From the IMG/VR virus record IMGVR_UViG_3300015241_000003: a stretch of 60,936 nucleotides of DNA. The stretch is one strand, 5' to 3'. This DNA comes from a virus. Below are positions 5,403 to 60,633 of this stretch, piece by piece. The number at the start of each line of letters is the position of its first letter. Position 1 is the stretch's first letter. Made by a program: the position numbers and the translations under genes. The notes beneath the pieces are model-generated. The model was not told the origin of the DNA and made no database searches. It worked only from the letters and a program-made list of their open reading frames with translations.

Positions 5403-6235
5403 TAGAGATACCTCGCAGACCATGAGAAAATTGCTTCAGCACTAACAGCAGATGGACTTGTGATAGCAATGTTGAATATCGTGGTATCAGGCTCAATTAC
5501 AGGAAAAACCCCAACAGGATCGCTTTTCTCGCCGCTCCCGTTCGTGATGATTGACATACCTGCTATGGGGTCACATTGGATGTCCACATAATCACCGTTA
5601 ATAGCTGGTAGTGGCACACCAGCCGTTGAGTATGTCGTGAGTGTCTGCGAGTCCTGGACCTGGCTCACTGAGATAGCAGACCACTGGTGTGTGCCTGATG
5701 TTTTGTTCGTGATCCTGATGAGTGGGTAGCTCTCGATTGTGCCACCGCCTACAATGCTGATAGCCGGAAAGTTGTAGACACCAGAAGCTAAGGTCAGAGC
5801 GACCACGCCCGTGTCGTATAAGCTAGAAGAGGCTGCATATGCCATCGTATCATACGAGCGAAACGAGCACTGCACGATACAAGAGGCTATGTTCGCGGCC
5901 CCGGCGAGTGTTGCTACAGCCGAGAGGCAGTCAGTATTAGAAAAGTACCGACCATCTTCGAATATTGTTAGCGCCTGCCCTCTAAGCCTCAAAGCCTTCT
6001 TGAGAGCGTCTAGTCGTGCATTCAAGTCATTCCTGTCCGTTGCAACGATCTTGATAGTGAGTGGAATGTCACGCGGCCCTACAAGCTCTCCATTCTTCAC
6101 AGCTCCATAACCACGTGCGATATTTGATGTAATTGGAGTGACGACAGGAGCACTCACATCTTTTGACCGTAGAATACTGCCAACACCACTTGAGAAGGCA
6201 TCCATAGAATATGAGCCGAATAACACATAAGCCAT
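5402..6235 (-). CDS. distal tail protein (Dit-like)
   Basis: A 277-aa ORF immediately after the tape measure, which is the canonical Dit position and size. Confidence 0.6.
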   Translation of the reverse strand: MAYVLFGSYSMDAFSSGVGSILRSKDVSAPVVTPITSNIARGYGAVKNGELVGPRDIPLTIKIVATDRNDLNARLDALKKALRLRGQALTIFEDGRYFSNTDCLSAVATLAGAANIASCIVQCSFRSYDTMAYAASSSLYDTGVVALTLASGVYNFPAISIVGGGTIESYPLIRITNKTSGTHQWSAISVSQVQDSQTLTTYSTAGVPLPAINGDYVDIQCDPIAGMSIITNGSGEKSDPVGVFPVIEPDTTIFNIAITSPSAVSAEAIFSWSARYL

Positions 6236-8833
6236 CTACCAAGCCCCCCTTGCGACACTCTCATATTTTTGCCCTAATACGTCTCCAATCGCTTTTGCAA
6301 GCTTGTCAGCGTTGACATCGCTTCCCTGTACTGAGGCGTTCATGGTGACGTTACCAGTGCCTTTCCCTTGCTGTGCAATCTGAGAAAGCAACCCCACAGC
6401 TTGGGTAAGGAGACCTACGAGCTGGTCACTGCCTTGCGTCTGAGAAGGTGCTGAGCTTGGTGACTGCACAAAAGAAGGTGAGGGCATTGTGATGTTTTGC
6501 ATGAATTGTGCTGTTTTCGCCTCATTCCATACACTGGACCCCTTGGGCAAATTGACCAGCATCTCATTGGCGTGGACGTAAGCTAGACCACCTCCAAAGT
6601 TCTCTATGCCAGAAGCGAAATTTCCTACAGCACCGCCACCACCTCCGGCAGGGGACGGTGTTTTTGTGCCGAGCACACCGCCTGTAGCATCCCTGATAGC
6701 ATTAGATAACGAGTGATACCAGTCGATAGCGGTGGATATCCAATCTATGACATCTGCTAAGCCGTTCACGACATGTGTCATAAAATCAAGAAAACCGTTA
6801 ATAGCAGGCCCAACGACATAATCCAGGACTATTTGCAGCCCCCTAAATGCTCCAGATACAGGCCCTAATACTGAGGCTGCAAGTACTCCCAAGTCACCGA
6901 GCAGGTTGGGCGATATTGAATTCCAGAGATGACCGAGCGCCTGTGTTAGATGATCTGAACTTCCTTTCACGCCGTCCATATGCGGCATAACATCAGTGCT
7001 TAGAATATTGCTTAGAGATTGGAATACAGGAATTATATTAGCCTGTATCCAATTCCACAAAATAATAAGTGGTGGCATCACCTTTGTCTCTATAAAGGTT
7101 TTAAGGTTATCCATTTTTATTCGCACATCTCCCATCTCATCGCCCCACGTCGTGAATATAGGCACTATTTGTGTCTGGATAAATGCCCAAAGCTGCTGTA
7201 ACTTTGGCATGACCTGTGTCTCTATAAATATCTTGAGATCGTTAAACTTGTCTATCACATATATCTTGATATTATTGCCCCATTGCTGCAAAATAGGAAT
7301 GATCTGTGTCTGTATGTAATTCCAGAATCTGATAAGCTTAGGCATCACCTGAGTTTCAATAAACGTTTTTAGAGCATTAAATTTATCTATGACCCATACC
7401 TGTATATTATGCCCCCAAGCCTGCAAAGTAGGCACAACTTGCGTTATGATGTAGTTCCAAAACGTCCTAAGTACAGGAATCACCCTTTGATCTAGGACAT
7501 TGCCGATAAATCCAAGGACATTGCCGATTGCCGCGCCTGCTCCAGAGACGAAATCTTGGAATGCCTTGCTCGATACAGCAGTTGCCAGCCCCTGGAATAG
7601 CCCTTTTACACGATCAACAACAGATCCGGTCTGCACCATGCCGTCTTTTATGCCAAGGAATGAGTCTAGTCCCTCTTTGAGGTAGCCTGACAGCGTTGAC
7701 AAAACACCTGACAAAGAAGCAGACTGCTTAGCCATGCCGCCTTTATAGAGCGGATTCATCTCTATCCCCTTGGTCAAAGCATCGATTGCGACCTTGGCTG
7801 GCAAGGTGCCGTTGCTTGCCATGGCTCGAAGTGCTTCTTTTGTCTTGCCTGTGGCCCTACTCATTGCATCTAGAACATCGATACCATGTGTCTGCATTTG
7901 GCTGATATCACCCCAGGTCATCACGCCTGCCACTTTGATCTTGCCAAGGATATCGACAACAGACTTCATCTCAGCTTCAGAGCCATGTCCTATGCCAAAG
8001 AGCGCATCACCTATGCTGGTCAAATCAGGAATAACATCTTTTGCAGCTATACCCATGCCGATCAACTGAGCTGCATACTGCTGTACAGGCTCAGGCTCGA
8101 ATGGGGTCACGTCTGCAAAGTGATTCAGCTCTTTGATCTCCGCAGCTGCTTGCTTAGCACCACCCATCAGAGTCGTGAAGCTTATTCCTAGTTGCTCAGC
8201 AGAGGCAATAGGGCCAAGCAGGGCACCACCTAGCTGTATAGCGCCCTGGATTAGCCCTTGAACGCCAAGTATAGCCATGCCAGCTTTAGAGGCAAAGTCA
8301 AGAAATCCTCCTCCACTTGATTCAGTCTTTGAGGAGAGTTCACTCATGTGGCTTGTTGTGCTGCTCATCCCTGACGTAAGGCCGCTAAGAGCCCCTTTCG
8401 CCATCTCTATTGCACGTGTGAATATGCTCGTCTTCTCGGAGTCTTCAGTCATTGCAGCAGCGAGGCGCTGGCCTTCTGCCTGTACCTTGTTCATAGCTGT
8501 ACTGAGATTATTTTGAGCTGTCTGGACTTTTTCAGCAGCGAGACCAGCCTTAGCCTGCGCTAGTGCTACCTGCTCAGCAGATGCTTTACCACCAAGCGCG
8601 GCATCCTGAGCTTTCTTGAGAGCGACGGCTGCACTGGCTTGCGCTACTTCAAGTTTCTTGCCAGCTTCAGCAGCCTTTGTCTGAAATGCAGAGAGCTTGT
8701 CAAAGTTCTCGCCAGCTTTTGTGACTTGACCAATCTGGTTTTTGACAGCGTTGAGGCTATTCTCGAAAGCCTTGAGTGTGGCTTGAGAATTGCCAGGGGT
8801 GATATCTAGTTTCCAGATCGTGTCGTCTACCAT
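6236..8833 (-). CDS. tail tape measure protein
   Basis: 865 aa with an Ala/Lys/Gln-rich coiled-coil N-terminus. The TP901-type core reads FADVTPFEPEPVQQYAAQLIGMGI..GDISQMQTHGIDVLDAM. It also has internal W/F-periodic repeats and follows the chaperones. Confidence 0.9.
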   Translation of the reverse strand: MVDDTIWKLDITPGNSQATLKAFENSLNAVKNQIGQVTKAGENFDKLSAFQTKAAEAGKKLEVAQASAAVALKKAQDAALGGKASAEQVALAQAKAGLAAEKVQTAQNNLSTAMNKVQAEGQRLAAAMTEDSEKTSIFTRAIEMAKGALSGLTSGMSSTTSHMSELSSKTESSGGGFLDFASKAGMAILGVQGLIQGAIQLGGALLGPIASAEQLGISFTTLMGGAKQAAAEIKELNHFADVTPFEPEPVQQYAAQLIGMGIAAKDVIPDLTSIGDALFGIGHGSEAEMKSVVDILGKIKVAGVMTWGDISQMQTHGIDVLDAMSRATGKTKEALRAMASNGTLPAKVAIDALTKGIEMNPLYKGGMAKQSASLSGVLSTLSGYLKEGLDSFLGIKDGMVQTGSVVDRVKGLFQGLATAVSSKAFQDFVSGAGAAIGNVLGFIGNVLDQRVIPVLRTFWNYIITQVVPTLQAWGHNIQVWVIDKFNALKTFIETQVMPKLIRFWNYIQTQIIPILQQWGNNIKIYVIDKFNDLKIFIETQVMPKLQQLWAFIQTQIVPIFTTWGDEMGDVRIKMDNLKTFIETKVMPPLIILWNWIQANIIPVFQSLSNILSTDVMPHMDGVKGSSDHLTQALGHLWNSISPNLLGDLGVLAASVLGPVSGAFRGLQIVLDYVVGPAINGFLDFMTHVVNGLADVIDWISTAIDWYHSLSNAIRDATGGVLGTKTPSPAGGGGGAVGNFASGIENFGGGLAYVHANEMLVNLPKGSSVWNEAKTAQFMQNITMPSPSFVQSPSSAPSQTQGSDQLVGLLTQAVGLLSQIAQQGKGTGNVTMNASVQGSDVNADKLAKAIGDVLGQKYESVARGAW
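7013..7483 (-). repeat. in-frame tandem repeat (about 45 aa / 135 nt, about 3.4 copies) inside the tape measure gene
   Basis: Successive protein units are FWNYIITQVVPTLQAWGHNIQVWVIDKFNALKTFIETQVMPKLIR, FWNYIQTQIIPILQQWGNNIKIYVIDKFNDLKIFIETQVMPKLQQ and LWAFIQTQIVPIF... Confidence 0.85.
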
Positions 8834-16711: not shown

Positions 16712-18052
16712 TTAAACCTCCCCTAAAAATTGCAAGTTGCCATCCAGGCTCTGCTGAGCGTCCATAATCCCCATCAGCTCAACTTCAAATTCTTTGAGTA
16801 TCCATTCGCCATTCATACCCTCAGGAAGTGGCTTTGAGCGGTCAAGAAGATCAAAGCGGGTATTCACATCTCGCAACTGCTCACGCATGTAGTCACCCTT
16901 GCGATAGTATGGCTTCTTGGGCTTCTCTTGCTCATTGGAGCCTTCAACCATGCTCTTTCGCTGGGGAACATAGCGCGGATTCATCTTCTGTTGCATCTCA
17001 GTGAGCTTTGTCTCAAATGAGGTTTGCATCTCAGTGAGCTTGGCATCAAGCTTTTCCTGCATGATCTCATCTTGTGTCTTAGGTGCTGCGACTGTGTAGC
17101 CAGCCTCTTGCAAGAGCTTCAATGCATCCTCAGCAGTCGGCTTTGATGCCTCTTGCTTCTGCTTCTCAGCTTCCTTTTGCTGAGCTTGCTGTTGTTGGGC
17201 GAAAGCCTCTTGCAACTCCTTGAGGAGCTGAGCTTTCTCTTCAGGTGTCATAGGTTGCTCCTTTGTTTCTGGAGGTGCAGACTTATCGCCCGTACTCTCC
17301 TTGCATTCTTTACCAAGAAAAGCGGCTAATCCGCTATGTGCTTTTGTGAGGTATTCTGAAGTCTGAGAACTAAACTTTGCTCCTACCTCAGTAATACCAA
17401 GAAACGTTAGTGCAGTGGAACGCTCCATATCATCAGGAGCACAATCTAAATCCATTGCTTTTGCAAGATAATCATGAGTAGTACTGAGTGATTGTGGGTA
17501 GAGAGCTTCTACTGTTTTTACTTCTTCTATAAGTGCAGTATCTTTAAAAGTGAATATCTCAGTAAGGTCTTGAGGTTCTCTCGATTCGGAGACGTACTCG
17601 ACGCGTGCGTTAGGAATGCCAGGTGAGGAGGTAAAGTCGATGCCAGTCAGGCGAATGTTCTCGCCTCCTACCATTGGGTATGGCTCGTCATTGTCGATGT
17701 ACATCTCAGCATTGACGGCTCGCAAGCTCTGGGATTTGATGTAGCCACCCTTGACCAGTTCCACAACCTCGTGGCCTGCTTGTGTGTCCGGTACATCGAT
17801 GAGAGCAAAAGCTTGCGTGCCTTCCTTGCCGATGGCTGCAATCTTGCCGACAATCTCATTAGTGGCATCCATATATGCAGAGTCGTGTGAGAGGTAGACA
17901 GTGAGAGGTAGCGCGTTAGGGTCGCTGAGCTGTACTTGAGCAGCTTGCACGAGACGATTGACGGTCAGGGCAGGGTACTTCCTGCCATTCAGAGATGTGG
18001 CGTCATCCTCTAGGAAGATAGATTTTACACGAGCTATGCGGTTTTCTACCAT
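16712..18052 (-). CDS. prohead protease (HK97/S78-like) fused to coiled-coil scaffolding region
   Basis: His56 (YLSHD) and Ser107/109 (IKSQSL) are spaced about 50 aa apart, as in HK97 gp4. The C-terminal half is Glu/Lys/Gln-rich coiled coil (EEKAQLLKELQEAFAQQQQAQQKEAEKQKQEA). Confidence 0.5.
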   Translation of the reverse strand: MVENRIARVKSIFLEDDATSLNGRKYPALTVNRLVQAAQVQLSDPNALPLTVYLSHDSAYMDATNEIVGKIAAIGKEGTQAFALIDVPDTQAGHEVVELVKGGYIKSQSLRAVNAEMYIDNDEPYPMVGGENIRLTGIDFTSSPGIPNARVEYVSESREPQDLTEIFTFKDTALIEEVKTVEALYPQSLSTTHDYLAKAMDLDCAPDDMERSTALTFLGITEVGAKFSSQTSEYLTKAHSGLAAFLGKECKESTGDKSAPPETKEQPMTPEEKAQLLKELQEAFAQQQQAQQKEAEKQKQEASKPTAEDALKLLQEAGYTVAAPKTQDEIMQEKLDAKLTEMQTSFETKLTEMQQKMNPRYVPQRKSMVEGSNEQEKPKKPYYRKGDYMREQLRDVNTRFDLLDRSKPLPEGMNGEWILKEFEVELMGIMDAQQSLDGNLQFLGEV

Positions 18053-18063
18053 GGTTACCTCGA

Positions 18064-18101
18064 CAATAAAAAAAGAGCCCTAACCTCGAAAGGTTGGGCT
18101 C
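18064..18101 (-). terminator. intrinsic terminator
   Basis: The minus strand reads GAGCCCAACC-TTTCGA-GGTTAGGGCTC followed by TTTTTTTATTG. Confidence 0.8.
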
Positions 18102-18141
18102 AGGCTCTAAGGGCTCAGGCTCTTGGTTACTTATTCAGTTA

Positions 18142-18257
18142 GGTGAGAGGCTAGGATTTGCACCTAGCATGTGGGATAACCTCGAAGACTCTATCTGCTT
18201 TCGCTTAATCCCTGACGATAGCCCGCTTCTAGCGTCTACCTATTCCGCCACTCTCAC
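18142..18257 (-). ncRNA. aberrant tRNA-Leu-like element (116 nt; possible pseudo-tRNA or tRNA-like ncRNA)
   Basis: GTGAGAG-TG-GCGGAATAGGTAGACGC is a class-II acceptor plus D-arm, and CTAGG-TGCAAAT-CCTAG is a T-arm. CTCTCAC pairs with the 5-prime end. The anticodon arm is replaced by a 46-nt hairpin. Confidence 0.4.
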
Positions 18258-18424
18258 ATAATACGCGCTAGTCGAATCGAACGTCGTCGCCCGCGGATTG
18301 AAGTCCGCCATGCACCTTACACCGAACGCGCTTGCAGCAAAAGGCGTCTGTAGACTTGACACTTTCCTTGCAGGTGCCTGGTGTTCCTGCGTCCTCTTGC
18401 TGAAACTAGTATAGCACGGTATTA

Positions 18425-18607
18425 TCATTTTACGCTAGCCTCTTGCTTGGCTTGCTGCTCATCAAGTAGAGCCCACATCCTACCAATCTCCTCACGTGAA
18501 ATAACATGCTCAGCATTGCATCTACTACACCATAAATGGATACCATCGTGGCTGATGATAGCCAGTCTTCTATGAGTCGTATCGCAATTGATCGCACGTT
18601 TATTCAT
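18425..18607 (-). CDS. hypothetical small Cys/His protein (possible zinc ribbon)
   Basis: 60 aa with NCDTTH and WCSRCN motifs. Confidence 0.5.
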   Translation of the reverse strand: MNKRAINCDTTHRRLAIISHDGIHLWCSRCNAEHVISREEIGRMWALLDEQQAKQEASVK

Positions 18608-18898
18608 TCAAATAGCCCCTCTAAAATCACGATTCATCAATGCCTGCTTCAACACATCCTCGATACTATGAGTACCTGCAAACTTGATTGGAGGCTGGTA
18701 AGGCTTTGCAAGTACGGTCACGCAAGCGCCTCCCGAGATAGGCATGAGACACACACTCACCAGTTCCACAGGACCGCCTACCTCCTCAAGAAGATTATTG
18801 CATCCTTGTGCTATGGCAGTGTTGATGCCTTCTGCTTCTTGGCCTGCTACGAGGCCTACGGTTACAGTGGTGTAGAGCATCACGCCCTGCCTCTCCAT
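18608..18898 (-). CDS. hypothetical protein
   Basis: 96-aa ORF. An alternative ATG at 18880 would abut the upstream stop. Confidence 0.45.
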   Translation of the reverse strand: MERQGVMLYTTVTVGLVAGQEAEGINTAIAQGCNNLLEEVGGPVELVSVCLMPISGGACVTVLAKPYQPPIKFAGTHSIEDVLKQALMNRDFRGAI

Positions 18899-19080
18899 TC
18901 CTTGCTCATCCTTGCCTGACTTTTTTGCTTGCGAGGCTTAGGATATCGATATTGCTTAGCATAGGTATTCAGTCCGCCCTCTGTAATATTGACTTTAATG
19001 TGCTCAGATCCCACGTTTATTGATGTCCACTGAATAGGCGTTGTGTGATCAATAATGATAAATTGCGACATTTCATTCAT
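18880..19080 (-). CDS. hypothetical protein
   Basis: 66-aa ORF overlapping the portal stop by a few nt. Confidence 0.45.
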   Translation of the reverse strand: MNEMSQFIIIDHTTPIQWTSINVGSEHIKVNITEGGLNTYAKQYRYPKPRKQKSQARMSKEWRGRA

Positions 19081-21238
19081 CCTCCACTAGCGAATATGCA
19101 TACCGCTCGTCTCCAATCGCCAGCCATAGCAGGTCAAAGTCGAGATCAATAGCAGGAACGCTATTGATCGGCATAGGATCAGTAGCAGGGATGTATGAGA
19201 GCGTGATATGGGCCGTATAGCCATGTGTTGCATCAGGAGAGAAGCCAGCCACTTGCAAGGTTTGCACCAGATCTTGACGCCACTCAGGAAGCCCAGGCGC
19301 ATCTACAGAAGCATAGACAGGTGTAGGCTCACCATCGGGTACAGAAGTGAAACGGCCTATTCCTGATACTCTCGCCTTCAGAGCAAAAGCATTCTCGGCA
19401 TAGGTTTGCACTGCTTTCTTGAGTGCATCTATGTTCCCTAGTTGGCTCTTGTCTCCCAGGAATGCCAGTGTGCAATGCAGCTCGTCAATCGGCTCACCAG
19501 TGTCTAAGACTAACGCTTGGGACTCGCTAGGTTTCAGAAAGAATGCAACCATAACGCCAGTGTTGTTAGCCTCGGCCAGATCCTCTTTGAGCCATTGAAG
19601 AAGCTCTATTCCCATTGGTGGCGTACTGAGGATAGATAGAGCCTCTTTCTGCTTATTGTTCTGGGCCAAAAGTATCTTGGGATCATACTCTTCTGGCATA
19701 AAACGAAAACGCATATTATCCTCTTTCTTAGGAGGTTGCTTGTCCTCCGGTGGTTGGTTCCCATCTTTGCCCTGGTTATCAGGATTGCCTTGCCCTTGCT
19801 GCATAGCCTGCTGAGCTCCTTGCAATGAGAGCTGAGCTTGCTGATTTTGCTCGTCCTCTAGGGTCTGCATCCGTGCTACTGGAGTGATGACGTTGCCAGT
19901 GGTGATAGTAGGGACATCGCCGCCGGGTACATCGCCTTTCCCGCGTTCCTGCCGTGCTTCATTTCTGGTCAGCGTGCCATTGCCAATAGAGGTATTTTCG
20001 ATTGAGGCAATGTCCTTGTCATCCCTATAATCTGCATGACGCGTTTGTACTCTCCAATCAGGCACATTCAAACCCGTCTTTACTGCTCTATAATTCAGCT
20101 TCTCAAGTATCCTGTTCTCTAGTGGGATAACCTTATTGTAGATAAATGATTTATTCTGGCTCTCACCCGTTCCACCACCTATATTGCCACTTTCGATAAT
20201 GCCGAGCATAGCAGGTGGTACGCCGTACACAACAAGGGCTCTATCACGCTGCTTATCCTGACTCTTATCGAAGTCCATCTCGATAGAGCCCTTGCCGAAC
20301 TCTTTCAGCTCACCACCACCATACATCACAGGAGGCTTGTGAGCGTTCTGTATGCCTGTGTAGTTCTCTTCATACCATTTGAGGTAACGCGTTCCATCCT
20401 CCTCTTCAGATTCAGGCCCCATTGATACCCAATAACTAGGCTTGCCACCTTGCCTGAAGAACTTCTCTCCCCACGTGACCATGCTCCGATCTAAGAACAC
20501 CGGGTCCTTGAGCTTCTCGATAGGCGAGAGGGCTTTCTTCTTGGCACGCGGGTCTGGTAGCCACCATCTGATAATCTCGCGAGGTTCAAAGTCAACCGTC
20601 TCTGTATTCTTCTCTAAACGCTGAGTATAGCCTGTGATGACACCGTGCCTATCAAATCGTGTATTCATGGTGAGAGAGTCGATAGTGTAGAGGTTGCGTA
20701 CAAGCCCATCGGGACCATACACCATCTCGCAAAAGGCTTCACCAAAGATAAGCATGTCTGTAGCAATGGAGTTGAAAAACTGCAAGAAGTCTTCTTCTAC
20801 ATCCTCAAATGCGAATAACGCTTTGACCTTCGCCTCGTTGGTAGCATTCCCCTTGCCCTGCTCTATCTCAACCGTCTCCCATCCTCCTGAGATCATGCGC
20901 TCAGCAGTCGTATCTACACACCCTGATACCCATTGGTTTCCGCAGTAGACCTGATAATAGGTATCCTTCTTCTGCCGCTCGTCCAGGAAGCCTTCTTTCG
21001 TCTGCACACTGCCTAGACCTAGCGATGTATCATCCCATGCCATGCTGAGGTTCTTAGGACCTTTTGCTGGTAGAGCTTTCATTGGGCGCTTTGATGCTTC
21101 TTCCAAGCTAATAATGTTGCGCTCATACATCTCTGAAGTGTGAGAATTGCTATCAAATTTGGGGATATCGTAGGGACGTTCCATCACACGGGAGCGCCGT
21201 TTGCGCGTGCGTATCCAGTTGGGAAAGCTTATCGCCAT
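19073..21238 (-). CDS. portal protein with C-terminal 2H phosphoesterase (LigT/2',5'-phosphodiesterase-like) domain
   Basis: 721-aa ORF downstream of the large terminase with a GAGGTGA RBS. A Q/P-rich linker precedes a C-terminal domain. That domain carries two H-x-T-L motifs, HCTL (codon 19475-19477) and HITL (19208-19210). Confidence 0.7.
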   Translation of the reverse strand: MAISFPNWIRTRKRRSRVMERPYDIPKFDSNSHTSEMYERNIISLEEASKRPMKALPAKGPKNLSMAWDDTSLGLGSVQTKEGFLDERQKKDTYYQVYCGNQWVSGCVDTTAERMISGGWETVEIEQGKGNATNEAKVKALFAFEDVEEDFLQFFNSIATDMLIFGEAFCEMVYGPDGLVRNLYTIDSLTMNTRFDRHGVITGYTQRLEKNTETVDFEPREIIRWWLPDPRAKKKALSPIEKLKDPVFLDRSMVTWGEKFFRQGGKPSYWVSMGPESEEEDGTRYLKWYEENYTGIQNAHKPPVMYGGGELKEFGKGSIEMDFDKSQDKQRDRALVVYGVPPAMLGIIESGNIGGGTGESQNKSFIYNKVIPLENRILEKLNYRAVKTGLNVPDWRVQTRHADYRDDKDIASIENTSIGNGTLTRNEARQERGKGDVPGGDVPTITTGNVITPVARMQTLEDEQNQQAQLSLQGAQQAMQQGQGNPDNQGKDGNQPPEDKQPPKKEDNMRFRFMPEEYDPKILLAQNNKQKEALSILSTPPMGIELLQWLKEDLAEANNTGVMVAFFLKPSESQALVLDTGEPIDELHCTLAFLGDKSQLGNIDALKKAVQTYAENAFALKARVSGIGRFTSVPDGEPTPVYASVDAPGLPEWRQDLVQTLQVAGFSPDATHGYTAHITLSYIPATDPMPINSVPAIDLDFDLLWLAIGDERYAYSLVEDE

Positions 21239-24166: not shown

Positions 24167-24298
24167 GCATGCCCTTTGTGAGTCATCCTGTGAGCATGAA
24201 AATGGACTCCTCGGGGTTGCAATAGATGCAAAAGTGTGAGAGGAGTCCTTCCGTTAAGGTTTGTGTATTGGATCGTGTTTACAGATCTGACGCCAGTA

Positions 24299-24371
24299 TA
24301 GCACATACCAGATTTGAACTGGTGACTTTCTGCCTGAGAAGCAGACGGCCTAACCACTAGCCTAATGTGCC
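24299..24371 (-). tRNA. tRNA-Glu (anticodon CUC)
   Basis: 73-nt cloverleaf folded by hand. Acceptor is GGCACAT/ATGTGCT with G1-U72. The D-arm is GGCT/GGCC and the anticodon arm is TCTGC-TTCTCAG-GCAGA. The T-arm is ACCAG-TTCAAAT-CTGGT, position 73 is A, and no CCA is encoded. Confidence 0.85.
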
Positions 24372-24376
24372 ATGAA

Positions 24377-24449
24377 TAGCGCATAGCAGACTCGAACTGC
24401 TAATCTCTACATTGAAAGTGTAGTGGCTTAACCATTCGCCCAATGCGCC
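24377..24449 (-). tRNA. tRNA-Glu (anticodon UUC)
   Basis: 73-nt cloverleaf. Acceptor is GGCGCAT/ATGCGCT with G1-U72. The anticodon arm is CTACA-CTTTCAA-TGTAG and the T-arm is AGCAG-TTCGAGT-CTGCT. Position 73 is A and no CCA is encoded. Confidence 0.85.
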
Positions 24450-37268: not shown

Positions 37269-38027
37269 TTATCCAATCGTTCTAATTGTCCAGAAATCGC
37301 TCGCCAGCCCTTTATTCATGAGATACTCGTAAGGTATTTCAAAGTAGCCAGTGCCATTGATACCCCATCCTGTACCCCAACTATTGCGACAAATGAACCT
37401 CTGTACGTCATCCTTATAGCCACAACATAAAACCGCGTGGCCACCCAAAACCTGCTCGTCTGGCCCGGGCATAGGCACAATTCCCCTACCAGCCACGTCC
37501 TGACTTTCAAAGCTGCTATAGACAGTAAACCCATAGACAAAGGGATAACCGCTCGCCAGACACGCTTTCATCTGTGTAAGGTTGCGAGTCACTCGCTGGT
37601 AGCTCACAGCCTTGTCTAGCTGGGCTTGCTGGTAGCAAAGGGCAGACGGCCTGGTCGTGAATTGCGAGATGTCGTAGGGCCATTCTGGTTCGCTACAGGC
37701 CCCTTGCTTATTCACGCTCTTGATGCCATCACGGATCATCGCCCCGGAGTCGCTGCTAACTGTATGCTCCATGACGCGCTCATTGAAGTAGATAAATAAC
37801 CTGGAAGGTGTGAAGTCTGGCAGCCCCTGTTTCACCCGATCAAACTCAATAGCCCCTGCAATGGCATTGGCTGTGCAGCTCCCCAGATTGCCTTGGTCAT
37901 ACACAGGCGGACACCCGGGCCTCAGATCTGCACTCGGCGGTAAAGCTGCGATGTGCTCAAGTGGTGCTGAGTACATATGGTCGCGTGTATCCGGTAAGTC
38001 GGGTATCCATCCTAATTTATGAGTCAT
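37269..38027 (-). CDS. papain-like cysteine peptidase (family C1)
   Basis: Catalytic signatures YDQGNLGSCTANA (Gln/Cys), GGHAVLCCGY (His) and CRNSWGTGWGINGTGYF (Asn-Ser-Trp). No signal peptide or long propeptide is apparent. Confidence 0.9.
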   Translation of the reverse strand: MTHKLGWIPDLPDTRDHMYSAPLEHIAALPPSADLRPGCPPVYDQGNLGSCTANAIAGAIEFDRVKQGLPDFTPSRLFIYFNERVMEHTVSSDSGAMIRDGIKSVNKQGACSEPEWPYDISQFTTRPSALCYQQAQLDKAVSYQRVTRNLTQMKACLASGYPFVYGFTVYSSFESQDVAGRGIVPMPGPDEQVLGGHAVLCCGYKDDVQRFICRNSWGTGWGINGTGYFEIPYEYLMNKGLASDFWTIRTIG

Positions 38028-59409: not shown

Positions 59410-60308
59410 TAAATCTCTTTCTCCCTTCGTTTATTAGCCTCCCTGAGTAGGGCGGATTCACGTTGTTTGCGTTTTGTTTCCTCTGTATGGGTACGCCCTT
59501 TCTGGGCATTTCTCATTTTTTGCTTTGTCTCTTCAGTAGCGATACGCCCTTTTGGTCTTGGTATTCCCCTCTGTACTTCGCTCATTTTCTGACGTGACTC
59601 TTCGCTGTGAGACTTCCCTTTATTGGCTTCGCTTAGTTTTTTTCTCGTTTCCTCAGTGACTATATGCCCTTTAATAGCACCTTTCCCTTTGTGCGACCCA
59701 CTTATTTTTCGCTTGGTTTCTTCGCCAAGGCGCTTGCCCTTGTTGACCTCGCTTAATTTTGCTCGGGTCTTTTCACTGACAATGCGTCCCTTGTGCGCTT
59801 TACTGAGTTTTTGCCTAGTTTCTTCTGTCTTGACTACTCCCTTGCTTATATTGTTGCCTAGCATCATAACACGTCTCTTTTCACGTGTTTTTTTGGAAAC
59901 AACGAGCTTTTTATGGGATTCGCTCATTTTCCTTCGTATTTCCTCGCTAGGGTTAGATTGTCCCTCTCCGCCATTGTTGAGATTTGTAAGCCCATCCATA
60001 AAGAAGATGAGGGCAATTTCATATTCAAAGGCATCCTTTTCACTGGCAAAGTAGGCCAGGATTGTTTTAACAACCTCTTTACCTTCTGACAGTATCTTGC
60101 GGATAACATTACACTTATAAGGGTTTTCGTCCTTCCCTGATCGTGCCTCTACCTCATGCCACTTAATTCTTCTACCTGAACCTTTGCCGATATAAAAAAT
60201 TCTACCTCCCATTGAATCGGGATAAGCGAGGGCGTAAACGTAGTGCTTGCCTTGCGGGTTGTTCTGAGGTATAGTGTCACTCATGATAGAAACTTGCCTT
60301 TCTGTCAT
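59409..60308 (-). mobile_element. free-standing GIY-YIG homing endonuclease with about nine NUMOD3 repeats
   Basis: GIY-YIG elements are present: YVYALAY, IFYIGKGSGRR and EYEIALI. Repeated (T/S)EE(T/S)(R/K)xK(L/M/I)Sxx(H/N/Q)KG(K/R) units follow. The start is ATG 60308 or 60284, and the ORF track extends to 60401. Confidence 0.8.
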
Positions 60309-60633
60309 CACGCCTCGGATGCTACCCGTATCGATGGTTAGAACATCGGTACAGCATTGCGAGGCAAAACCATATTCAAATTTACCTCTACATTTTATCA
60401 TAAACCCGCCTGTAGAGCAAGTTTATCCACTATTAGGTACCTACAAATTGCGGTGTCATATGCCTCCCTCTTGTGCAAGTTACTTTCACCCTTCTCGCAC
60501 GTTCTAAGCGTAGAAAGGTAAAATCATATGTTTCAATATGTCAAAGTTGCTCTAAAAGCACTCTTCATCGCTGCTATGCTCCTTATCGCTGTATTAGTGC
60601 TCTATATCCTTTGCTTTGTTGTCTGGTATGGAC

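Follow-up and report, generated by a model that had tools for sequence, protein, structure and literature searches.

Organization of the locus

The window analysed here is the whole of a 60,936-nucleotide stretch of viral DNA (IMG/VR record IMGVR_UViG_3300015241_000003), and the present work concerns a tRNA-like element encoded on its minus strand at 18143-18257, in the leader of a prohead protease/scaffold gene. An aberrant tRNA-Leu-like fold had been proposed at this place from the sequence alone, and our rereading of the minus strand over 17700-18800 found all the sequence features listed in this original prediction at their positions. What had been taken for a one-off aberrant tRNA is a member of a large family of tRNA-like phage RNAs, which is real, conserved and not peculiar to the window. 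The features of the region are as follows.

18408-18416, minus strand: promoter-like extended -10 element, TGCTATACT, read from the sequence, which would head the leader of the protease/capsid genes
18335-18402, minus strand: 5' hairpin of 10 bp, CAGCAAGAGG (18393-18402) with CCUUUUGCUG (18335-18344), enclosing about 48 nucleotides
18263-18331, minus strand: degenerate tRNA-like element 1 (weak Rfam tRNA-Sec match, relaxed ARAGORN)
18143-18257, minus strand: tRNA-Leu-derived tRNA-like RNA without anticodon arm (covariance model, family covariation, blastn), composed of the next six parts and followed by the discriminator
18251-18257, minus strand: acceptor 5' strand
18249-18250, minus strand: U8-G9
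18232-18248, minus strand: D arm
18169-18231, minus strand: variable central domain, including the conserved ACAU (18169-18172)
18150-18168, minus strand: 6-bp T arm with loop UGCAAAU
18143-18149, minus strand: acceptor 3' strand
18142, minus strand: discriminator C
18111-18122 and 18096-18107, minus strand: two direct half-repeats, GAGCCUGAGCCC, in the protease-gene leader, the second copy being the 5' strand of the hairpin
18068-18101, minus strand: bipartite hairpin GAGCCC-AACC / GGUU-A-GGGCUC (10 bp) followed by U7, an ancestral element of the protease-gene leader
18050-18061, minus strand: GAGG Shine-Dalgarno sequence (18058-18061) and ATG (18050-18052) of the prohead protease/scaffold gene

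The gene downstream of the leader encodes a protein of 446 amino acids, the relatives of which carry PF03420 (Peptidase_S77). The region in front of it had been described as non-coding, and this status is upheld. The overlapping open reading frame (ORF) of 62 amino acids (18240-18428, minus strand) is not conserved. It shrinks to 24 amino acids in the related contig L001 and is missing in L003, and a conserved small ORF was rejected as an explanation of the region. The sole default ARAGORN calls in the window are two genuine tRNA-Glu genes at 24298-24449. Among GenBank phages, no match was obtained with the whole 800-nucleotide region (blastn) or with the protease (tblastn), and a prophage search of 185,579 species genomes with the protease profile gave none either. 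A second contig with the window's protease, L027, is identical across the aligned region (18040-18438 of the window) and thus adds no information.

Fold of the tRNA-like element

The element is closed by a 7-bp acceptor-like stem, GUGAGAG/CUCUCAC, followed by UG and by the D arm GCGGAAUAGGUAGACGC, which folds as GCG-GAAUAGGUAGA-CGC and contains G18G19; its T arm reads GCUAGG-UGCAAAU-CCUAGC. The near-canonical acceptor, tRNA-Leu-type D arm and T arm proposed earlier were thus confirmed, together with the G at position 55 of the T-loop. The three hallmarks of a canonical tRNA (7-bp acceptor, D arm with G18G19 and T arm) are all found in the window element, but its T stem has 6 bp and its T-loop carries G55. 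A supposedly extra C before the 3' acceptor strand belongs to this longer stem: C18150 pairs with G18168 as a sixth T-stem pair, a feature found family-wide, resulting in a 13-bp acceptor/T stack (7 + 6). A geometric filter combining a 7-bp acceptor, a D arm, a perfect 5-bp T stem and a T-loop motif recovered the element and both tRNA-Glu genes, compared with 0.17 hits per shuffled 61-kb window, which argues that the tRNA-like shape of the element is not due to chance.

The decoding part of a tRNA is absent. The 63 nucleotides between the D and T arms contain no 5-bp anticodon stem with a 7-nucleotide loop (U33, purine 37), and no CCA is encoded after the discriminator C18142. The 46-nucleotide composite hairpin (GAAG..CUAUC/GAUAG..CUUC) that had been read as an anticodon arm is unsupported by homologues. 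The family favours another long arm, formed in the window by GU(CA)GGGAU...AUCCCAC (18208-18216 with 18171-18177) and ending directly before AU and the T arm. Constrained folds reveal a recurrent plan in which a short, often A-rich linker follows the D arm and leads to this long arm, whose last pairs, G-C and U-A, use the conserved AC and are followed by AU and the T stem. The GU...AC closure just before AU and the T stem was found in 12 of 22 members and is shared by the window, with a 2-nucleotide bulge. Since the variable arm of tRNA-Leu sits at the same position, we read the RNA as the upper body of a tRNA-Leu that has lost its anticodon arm and enlarged its variable arm.

The hairpin proposed earlier and the family-supported long arm are compatible only as a pseudoknot. 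Such a pseudoknot in place of the anticodon arm can be drawn for the window, SPP1/L042 and L039; it was rejected as its helix score over 22 members (4.48) equals that of shuffled sequences (4.51). An antisense payload in the central domain was likewise rejected, the longest complement within the window being 12 nucleotides, which corresponds to chance level.

A conserved family of phage RNAs

A blastn search of GenBank phages with the 117-nucleotide element alone picked out two phages, each of which matched in two pieces, the D arm and the T arm. In Bacillus phage SPP1, the matching locus lies between gene 9/10 and scaffold gene 11; in Brochothrix phage BtpYZU01, it is upstream of terS and adjoins a tRNA-Asn. 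The T-arm pattern ACATGCNAGGTGCAAATCCNNGC retrieved 22 IMG/VR loci and seven species genomes (two of Paenibacillus and one each of Leuconostoc, Lachnospiraceae, Catabacter and Faecousia, plus a weak match of 24.8 bits in a 'Prevotella' metagenome-assembled genome [MAG]). With a 30-nucleotide T-arm query, at least 168 GenBank phage records were found, all with Bacillota hosts: Listeria (70), Bacillus (41), Enterococcus (36), Leuconostoc (12) and Brochothrix (4), in addition to the thermophilic phage D6E and one phage each of Paenibacillus, Geobacillus and Liquorilactobacillus. Carriers include the model phages SPP1, A511/P100 and PSA. Among the 60 records listed, none has an RNA gene annotated over the match, which is either unannotated or placed under a hypothetical ORF; spurious ORFs sometimes overlie the elements, as in the case of SPP1 gene 10 and B025 gp64. 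The motif was not found in print in the papers searched, a description elsewhere being possible, and the family may be among the 10,006 unnamed candidates of a previous survey (PMC10690425).

The family RNA measures 51-185 nucleotides, with a central domain ranging from 0 (phiFL2A) to about 130 nucleotides. Its consensus order is a 7-bp closing stem ending with G7-C66, UG, GCGGAAUAGGUAGACGC, a variable central domain, ACAU, a T arm (GCAAGG-UGCAAAU-CCUUGC) and the 3' strand of the closing stem. All the consensus parts are present in the window: the closing stem with G7-C66, UG, GCGGAAUAGGUAGACGC, ACAU and the 6-bp T arm with UGCAAAU. The minimal 51-nucleotide version comes from Enterococcus phage phiFL2A (L058 1479-1529; 30.9 bits), which is without any central domain and consists of the closing stem, a D-loop-like strand and the T arm. 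Across 40 A511/P100-like phage genomes, the element is at least 98.7% identical.

Structural covariation was found among the homologous phages. On two alignments of 21 sequences (A6 and A7), evaluated against shuffles and slid-partner controls, 99% of the stem cells are paired and the covariation score amounts to 0.60-0.62, compared with 0.13-0.14 for shuffled alignments (none out of 500 reaching the observed value) and 0.02-0.16 for slid controls. Six of the seven closing-stem pairs display three to six pair types, and compensatory changes also occur in one D-stem pair and in one (A6) or two (A7) T-stem pairs. The leave-one-out covariance model R2, built from 21 other sequences with the window omitted, matches the window element over its full length (1-122) with 79.9 bits (E=2.9e-18), and the model R1 gives 85.8 bits. 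As R2 was built without the window, its score establishes the family membership of the window element. Besides, the family model gives 22-24 bits to genuine tRNA-Leu genes, and the D arm of the family is that of tRNA-Leu. These two observations support the relationship to tRNA-Leu put forward in the original prediction and indicate that the family derives from tRNA-Leu.

Genomic contexts fall into two main types. In small temperate phages, the element lies in a long intergenic region between an ArpU-type late activator and HNH/terS, as in PSA, phiFL2A and the Brochothrix phage; tRNAs of small phages are housed in the same region. In Listeria phage PSA (L056 1253-1698), it contains three structured RNAs in a row, namely the Rfam motif rli62 (100 bits), the family member (1439-1527) and an mcrA RNA motif (73 bits); in phiFL2A, a tRNA is located about 120 nucleotides downstream of the element. 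In large myoviruses, the element is found inside tRNA arrays and co-oriented with them, as in A511 (where it abuts tRNA-Asn), L042, L050 and L055. The family element behaves genomically like a tRNA gene.

The DnaB protein of the window phage shares 57-59% identity with DnaB sequences bearing the names Ktedonobacteraceae or Chloroflexota, and the protease of one relative is labelled as a Ktedonobacteraceae MAG. Based on these likenesses, the host of the window phage probably belongs to the Ktedonobacteria (Chloroflexota), and the family would therefore reach beyond Bacillota. The elbow sequences are common to the Bacillota phages and to the window's phage, which, along with the near-identity among A511/P100-like phages, we read as a sign of selection.

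The protease-gene leader, its insertion site and other tRNA-like RNAs

Relatives were found through the protease gene. The original prediction had taken the extended -10 element and the terminator-like hairpin as the two ends of a dedicated non-coding RNA. Both are present, and the hairpin displays the GC-rich stem and U-run of an intrinsic terminator (10-bp bipartite hairpin plus U7, 18068-18101), but they do not delimit such an RNA, as relatives without insert have both. The -10 element of the window has no -35 partner and is not called by a consensus scan. A similar -10 occurs at the same place in L001, L003, L012, L002 and L004, with or without an insert, and reads GCTATACT in L002 and L004.

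The leader motif is found just upstream of the protease ATG in the window (18064-18125, minus strand) and in L001-L004, L006, L012, L014 and L028-L031. It is made of two half-repeats (AGAGCYnnAGYCC / AGAGnCnnRGGCC), the second of which is the 5' strand of the bipartite hairpin, followed by the U-run and the start codon. The half-repeats are kept as a repeat with concerted changes in L003, L012, L002, L004, L006 and L028-L031. The hairpin is paired in 90 of 90 cells in nine distinct relatives, with several pair types per column, according to a manual structural alignment that was used instead of the meaningless structure returned by RNAalifold on a MAFFT alignment. Across relatives, U3-U8 follows the hairpin and precedes either AUG directly (no Shine-Dalgarno sequence) or about 20 nucleotides with GAGG. 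In distant relatives, the U-run comprises only U3-U4 and abuts the AUG, which argues that termination is not the conserved role of the leader hairpin. Since the hairpin and the U-run are also present in loci without tRNA-like insert, with AUG directly after the U-run, the promoter and the presumed terminator are best seen as parts of the protease-gene leader. The leader motif resembles an operator or attenuator under the control of a protein or of the ribosome.

The content of the site between promoter and leader differs between relatives. Nothing is found there in L002, L004 and L006. L003 has one tRNA-like element of different sequence, L001 the same element together with an orphan T arm (5788-5806), L012 a tRNA with a 16-nucleotide anticodon loop, and the window a 5' hairpin and two tRNA-like elements. 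The site behind the promoter is plainly a tRNA-insertion hot spot with relics.

Concerning the neighbours of the family member in the window, the 10-bp helix proposed for the 5' part is present, with one G-U pair, but does not reach significance by itself (z=-1.6), 16 of 200 shuffles folding equally well, and no homologue of the hairpin at 18335-18402 was found. Element 1 (18263-18331, minus strand) had been missed previously. Its acceptor has 7 bp, its D arm contains GG and its 5-bp anticodon stem carries the 6-nucleotide loop CUUCAA (UCA); the T stem includes two mismatches and is capped by the loop UUCGAUU. It yields the sole weak Rfam match (tRNA-Sec, 15.9 bits, E=3.8), has a fold z-score of 0.19 and is called by ARAGORN only at relaxed threshold with a 6-nucleotide loop, '(tc)'. 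No homologue of element 1 was found, and it may be a relic or else a tRNA of unusual form. An anticodon-UCA tRNA (ARAGORN tRNA-SeC) is located in L049 (7678-7749), about 600 nucleotides upstream of a family member, and recalls this UCA-like neighbour.

Other tRNA-like RNAs were encountered during this work. In the RNA shared by L001 (5820-5912) and L003 (4742-4836), a 7-bp acceptor and a small D arm are combined with a 9-bp arm that carries a 19-nucleotide loop and replaces the anticodon arm, and with a 6-bp T stem that has one mismatch and the T-loop UGCAAYU. This RNA is the most conserved stretch between both phages (95-98% versus at most 88% in genes). A common 'type A' family joining it to the window element was considered on the basis of the shared UGCAAYU loop and 6-bp T stem and then rejected; as R1 and R2 do not match these inserts, it is treated as a separate tRNA-like RNA. 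A viral-contig pattern derived from this rejected homology to L001/L003 gave chance matches, among them ORFs that follow a glutamine-II riboswitch. The L012 insert is not matched by R1 or R2 either and represents a different tRNA-like RNA.

The elements L012 2825-2907, L001 28-111 and L049 8914-9007 have canonical acceptor, D and T arms and anticodon loops of 16-18 nucleotides or longer (GAYAUGCUU...CAGAG). Those of L012 and L001 score 46-56 bits against RF00005 and show compensatory changes in three stems between them. These long-loop tRNAs are a second kind of anticodon-disrupted phage tRNA. In SPP1, a mini tRNA-like helix followed by a U-run comes directly after the family member (nucleotides ~6766-6817; L032 2614-2665), with an acceptor ACGGAC/GUCCGU and a T arm CGGGUUCAAUUCCCG; the orphan T arm of L001 is comparable. 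In the 2018 re-annotation of SPP1, the intergenic region holding the element is treated as non-coding, and a terminator is placed immediately behind the element, at the mini-helix (PMC6316719).

Elsewhere in the window, the C-terminus of the portal protein (721 amino acids; 19073-19500, minus strand) contains two HxT motifs (HCTLAF and HITLSY), which are suggestive of fusion to a 2H-phosphoesterase/LigT-like domain. In the relative L029, the gene upstream of the protease carries PF13563 (2_5_RNA_ligase2). The window phage also encodes a haem-NO-binding H-NOX protein (PF07700; 35225-36004, plus strand), a papain-family protease (37272-38027, minus strand) and a GIY-YIG/NUMOD3 homing endonuclease (59412-60401, minus strand).

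A candidate mimic of the tRNA body

The window element escapes the usual tRNA detection tools, and the original view that it is not a normal tRNA was borne out. ARAGORN with default settings makes no call on it, and Rfam returns nothing for it even at E<=10 in an 801-nucleotide search (no RF00005). More generally, no Rfam 15 family covers any family member at E<=1. Moreover, the base after the closing stem varies among members (A, C, G or U), and none of them encodes CCA. The family RNA is not a decoding tRNA, given the missing anticodon stem-loop, the inconsistent intron parses detailed below, the variable discriminator without CCA and a central domain of 0-130 nucleotides.

We propose that 18143-18257 (minus strand) encodes a stable, non-decoding mimic of the tRNA body, derived from tRNA-Leu, subject to tRNA-like processing and acting in trans through its elbow, an interpretation to which we assign a probability of about 0.55. 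Among the options left by the original prediction, the evidence favours a tRNA mimic or new phage non-coding RNA. The family preserves the tRNA upper body (closing stem, U8-G9, tRNA-Leu D arm and 6-bp T arm with UGCAAAU), a short linker replaces the anticodon arm, and the site of the variable arm is occupied by a long arm that varies in length and sequence. In this model, transcription would start from the late-type promoter at 18408-18416 and include the 5' hairpin and the tRNA(UCA)-like element, and the transcript would end at, or pass through, the leader hairpin/U7 before the protease gene. Host tRNA-maturation enzymes may then excise the RNA, RNase P acting at the 5' side of the closing stem and RNase Z or exonucleases at the 3' side, and the product would accumulate as a stable RNA. 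It would work in trans via the nearly invariant D-loop/T-loop elbow by imitating the tRNA(-Leu) body. Candidate partners are those that read the elbow and not the anticodon, such as a defence enzyme aimed at tRNAs or a conserved factor of the host that binds tRNA. Both tRNA-like maturation and trans action are suggested by the genomic behaviour as a tRNA gene, the preservation of the parts that make elbow contacts and a conservation stricter than a processing signal needs.

Several observations weigh against this proposal. The family alignment was partly seeded with the T-arm pattern, and since most sequences were fished with it, the search itself accounts for part of the T-arm invariance. Variation in this arm is seen in members found with the models, as in Ln-9 (GUAAGG/CCUUAC), L053b (T-loop UUCGAAU) and A511 (UGAAAAU), the A511 member also having a D loop without GG. 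The 13-bp acceptor/T stack and G55 are unusual for substrates of RNase P or the CCA enzyme, so that normal tRNA-type maturation is an assumption of the model. The central domain has no family-wide conserved motif, and the pseudoknot plausible in three subtypes does not exceed chance family-wide. A 2025 multi-omics study of the P100-like phage CKA15 reported hugely abundant, unexplained non-coding RNAs beside tRNA genes and suggested Y RNAs (PMC12282133); these RNAs are the only transcriptomic lead to the element. Finally, in small temperate phages, SPP1 and the window, the element is always situated in the 5' leader of late structural genes, which a cis role fits equally well.

This last observation leads to the main rival, a cis-acting leader module that would provide RNase P/RNase Z processing and a 5'-end stabilizing signal, i.e. 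tRNA punctuation without any role in trans. The position of the element accords with it, directly downstream of the late-type promoter and upstream of the protease/capsid genes in the window, between the ArpU-type activator and HNH/terS in PSA, phiFL2A and the Brochothrix phage, and upstream of scaffold gene 11 in SPP1. In addition, the 51-nucleotide version of phiFL2A approximates an acceptor/T-arm minihelix with a D-loop strand, which would be enough for a processing signal. However, an ordinary tRNA or minihelix would suffice for this purpose, leaving the near-invariant D-loop, the UGCAAAU T-loop and the 6-bp T stem unexplained. A511-type and SPO1-type elements stand amid tRNA arrays that already supply such sites, and the hairpin/U7 in the window separates the element from the mRNA to be stabilized. 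We consider this module unlikely, although it is the most probable of the alternatives.

Very improbable in our view is a Y-RNA-like role, in which the RNA would be bound by a Ro60/Rsr protein of the phage or its host, an explanation proposed for the CKA15 RNAs. Bacterial Y RNAs (YrlA) do mimic tRNA, and CKA15 has been reported with a Ro60-like virion protein near its tRNA region in addition to its abundant unexplained RNAs (PMC12282133). Against this idea, neither Rfam YrlA (RF02553) nor Y_RNA (RF00019) matches any member, and the D arm precedes the T arm in the family as in tRNA, which is not the YrlA order (T arm before D arm). No Ro60 gene is annotated near the element in PSA, phiFL2A and SPP1, and no TROVE domain was detected among the 20 larger non-structural window proteins scanned.

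A decoding tRNA (Leu or Ser) with a short anticodon-arm intron or insertion that is removed or tolerated is more improbable still. Relaxed ARAGORN with introns does parse the window element as a tRNA-Ser(AGA) with a canonical loop CU-AGA-GU and a 31-nucleotide intron after position 32. Applied to 20 members (-i -ps80), the same procedure yields Ser, Pro, Lys, Val, Ala, Pro, Gly, Tyr, Gly, Pyl and Gly, one two-base loop and nothing for 8 members, i.e. eight different identities or none, which speaks against an intron-bearing tRNA. No splicing signal was identified either: there is no Rfam intron or ribozyme match, the predicted splice sites are not in 3-nucleotide bulges 4 bp apart (bulge-helix-bulge motif), and a group I core would need far more room than the inserts offer (31-46 nucleotides). 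The discriminator differs between members, phiFL2A lacks a central domain altogether and, to our knowledge, elongator tRNAs have neither G55 nor an acceptor/T stack of 13 bp.

Lastly, a decaying tRNA-Leu pseudogene, one of several relics at the hot spot behind the late promoter, would agree with element 1, with the L001 orphan T arm and with an insert that differs or is absent in close relatives, but it is strongly disfavoured for 18143-18257 (and possible for 18263-18331), because the stems are perfectly kept (closing stem 99% paired) with abundant compensatory changes over dozens of lineages and high-scoring homologues are found in unrelated phages.

Implications

The conserved, structured RNA described here is present in at least 168 GenBank phage genomes, including those of SPP1, A511, PSA and the biocontrol phage P100. 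On a more tentative note, and with somewhat less than even confidence, it may represent an undescribed and widespread class of phage tRNA mimics, with a tRNA-Leu body, no anticodon arm and a hypervariable long arm, found in model phages (SPP1, A511/P100, PSA and phiFL) and in phages of at least two bacterial phyla, which would act in trans on a universally conserved elbow reader or as a decoy for tRNA-targeting immunity and perhaps give rise to the abundant RNAs of P100-like phages. The retention of the elbow and of the acceptor/T stack together with the loss of the anticodon suggests that some host process recognizes the body of the tRNA. Possible body readers are processing enzymes, a synthetase, the ribosome, and anti-phage tRNA nucleases and transferases. 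As the element is present in well-studied phages, its function is directly testable in tractable systems. Besides, this work has consequences for genome annotation, as tRNA finders and Rfam currently miss such elements. If the proposal is true, the family would be a DNA-phage counterpart to the tRNA-like structures of plant viruses and to Y RNAs.

Comparison with known RNAs

The family shares with class-II tRNA-Leu (RF00005) a 7-bp acceptor-like stem, U8, the D arm UGGCGGAAUAGGUAGACGC, a 7-nucleotide T-loop-type loop and a long arm at the position of the variable arm, closed by GU...AC, and it is often found within tRNA arrays. In contrast to tRNA-Leu, it has no anticodon stem-loop, its T stem has 6 bp instead of 5 and its loop is UGCAAAU with G55; its discriminator is variable and not followed by CCA, and it fails both the Rfam tRNA model and default ARAGORN.

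Like the tRNA-like domain of transfer-messenger RNA (tmRNA), the family combines the upper half of a tRNA with another RNA in place of the anticodon arm. It differs from tmRNA in having no tag reading frame, no conserved alanine identity and no CCA, in its intact D arm and in its size (51-185 nucleotides). The tmRNA mode of ARAGORN (-m) finds nothing at the window element, and the Rfam tmRNA models do not match the element, their only match (13.8 bits) being on the neighbouring SPP1 mini-helix.

YrlA/Y RNAs (RF02553) are likewise non-decoding, imitate the acceptor/T/D body of tRNA and occur in phages. In YrlA, both RNA ends are part of the Ro-binding stem, and the T arm comes before the D arm (Chen et al. 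2014, as cited in PMC12282133). The family keeps the tRNA order where YrlA is permuted, has neither a Ro-binding helix nor an Rfam match, and has no linked Ro60 gene in most of its carriers.

The stable 'species 1/2' RNAs of phage T4 and engineered tRNA scaffolds are also non-tRNA RNAs set in tRNA-like termini or clusters. They are matured by tRNA enzymes, and foreign hairpins replace their anticodon arm. Differences are that the family has no sequence relation to the T4 RNAs, that the latter are confined to T4-like phages and that scaffolds are artificial.

Finally, the 3' tRNA-like structures of plant viruses of the turnip yellow mosaic virus type are, as the family would be, viral mimics of tRNA. 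The T-loop of the turnip yellow mosaic virus structure is UGCAAnU, a resemblance that we regard as a lead. Structures of this type form the 3' terminus of RNA genomes, contain a pseudoknot in the acceptor, finish with CCA and are aminoacylated, whereas the family element is an internal gene of double-stranded DNA phages and is closed by an ordinary stem.

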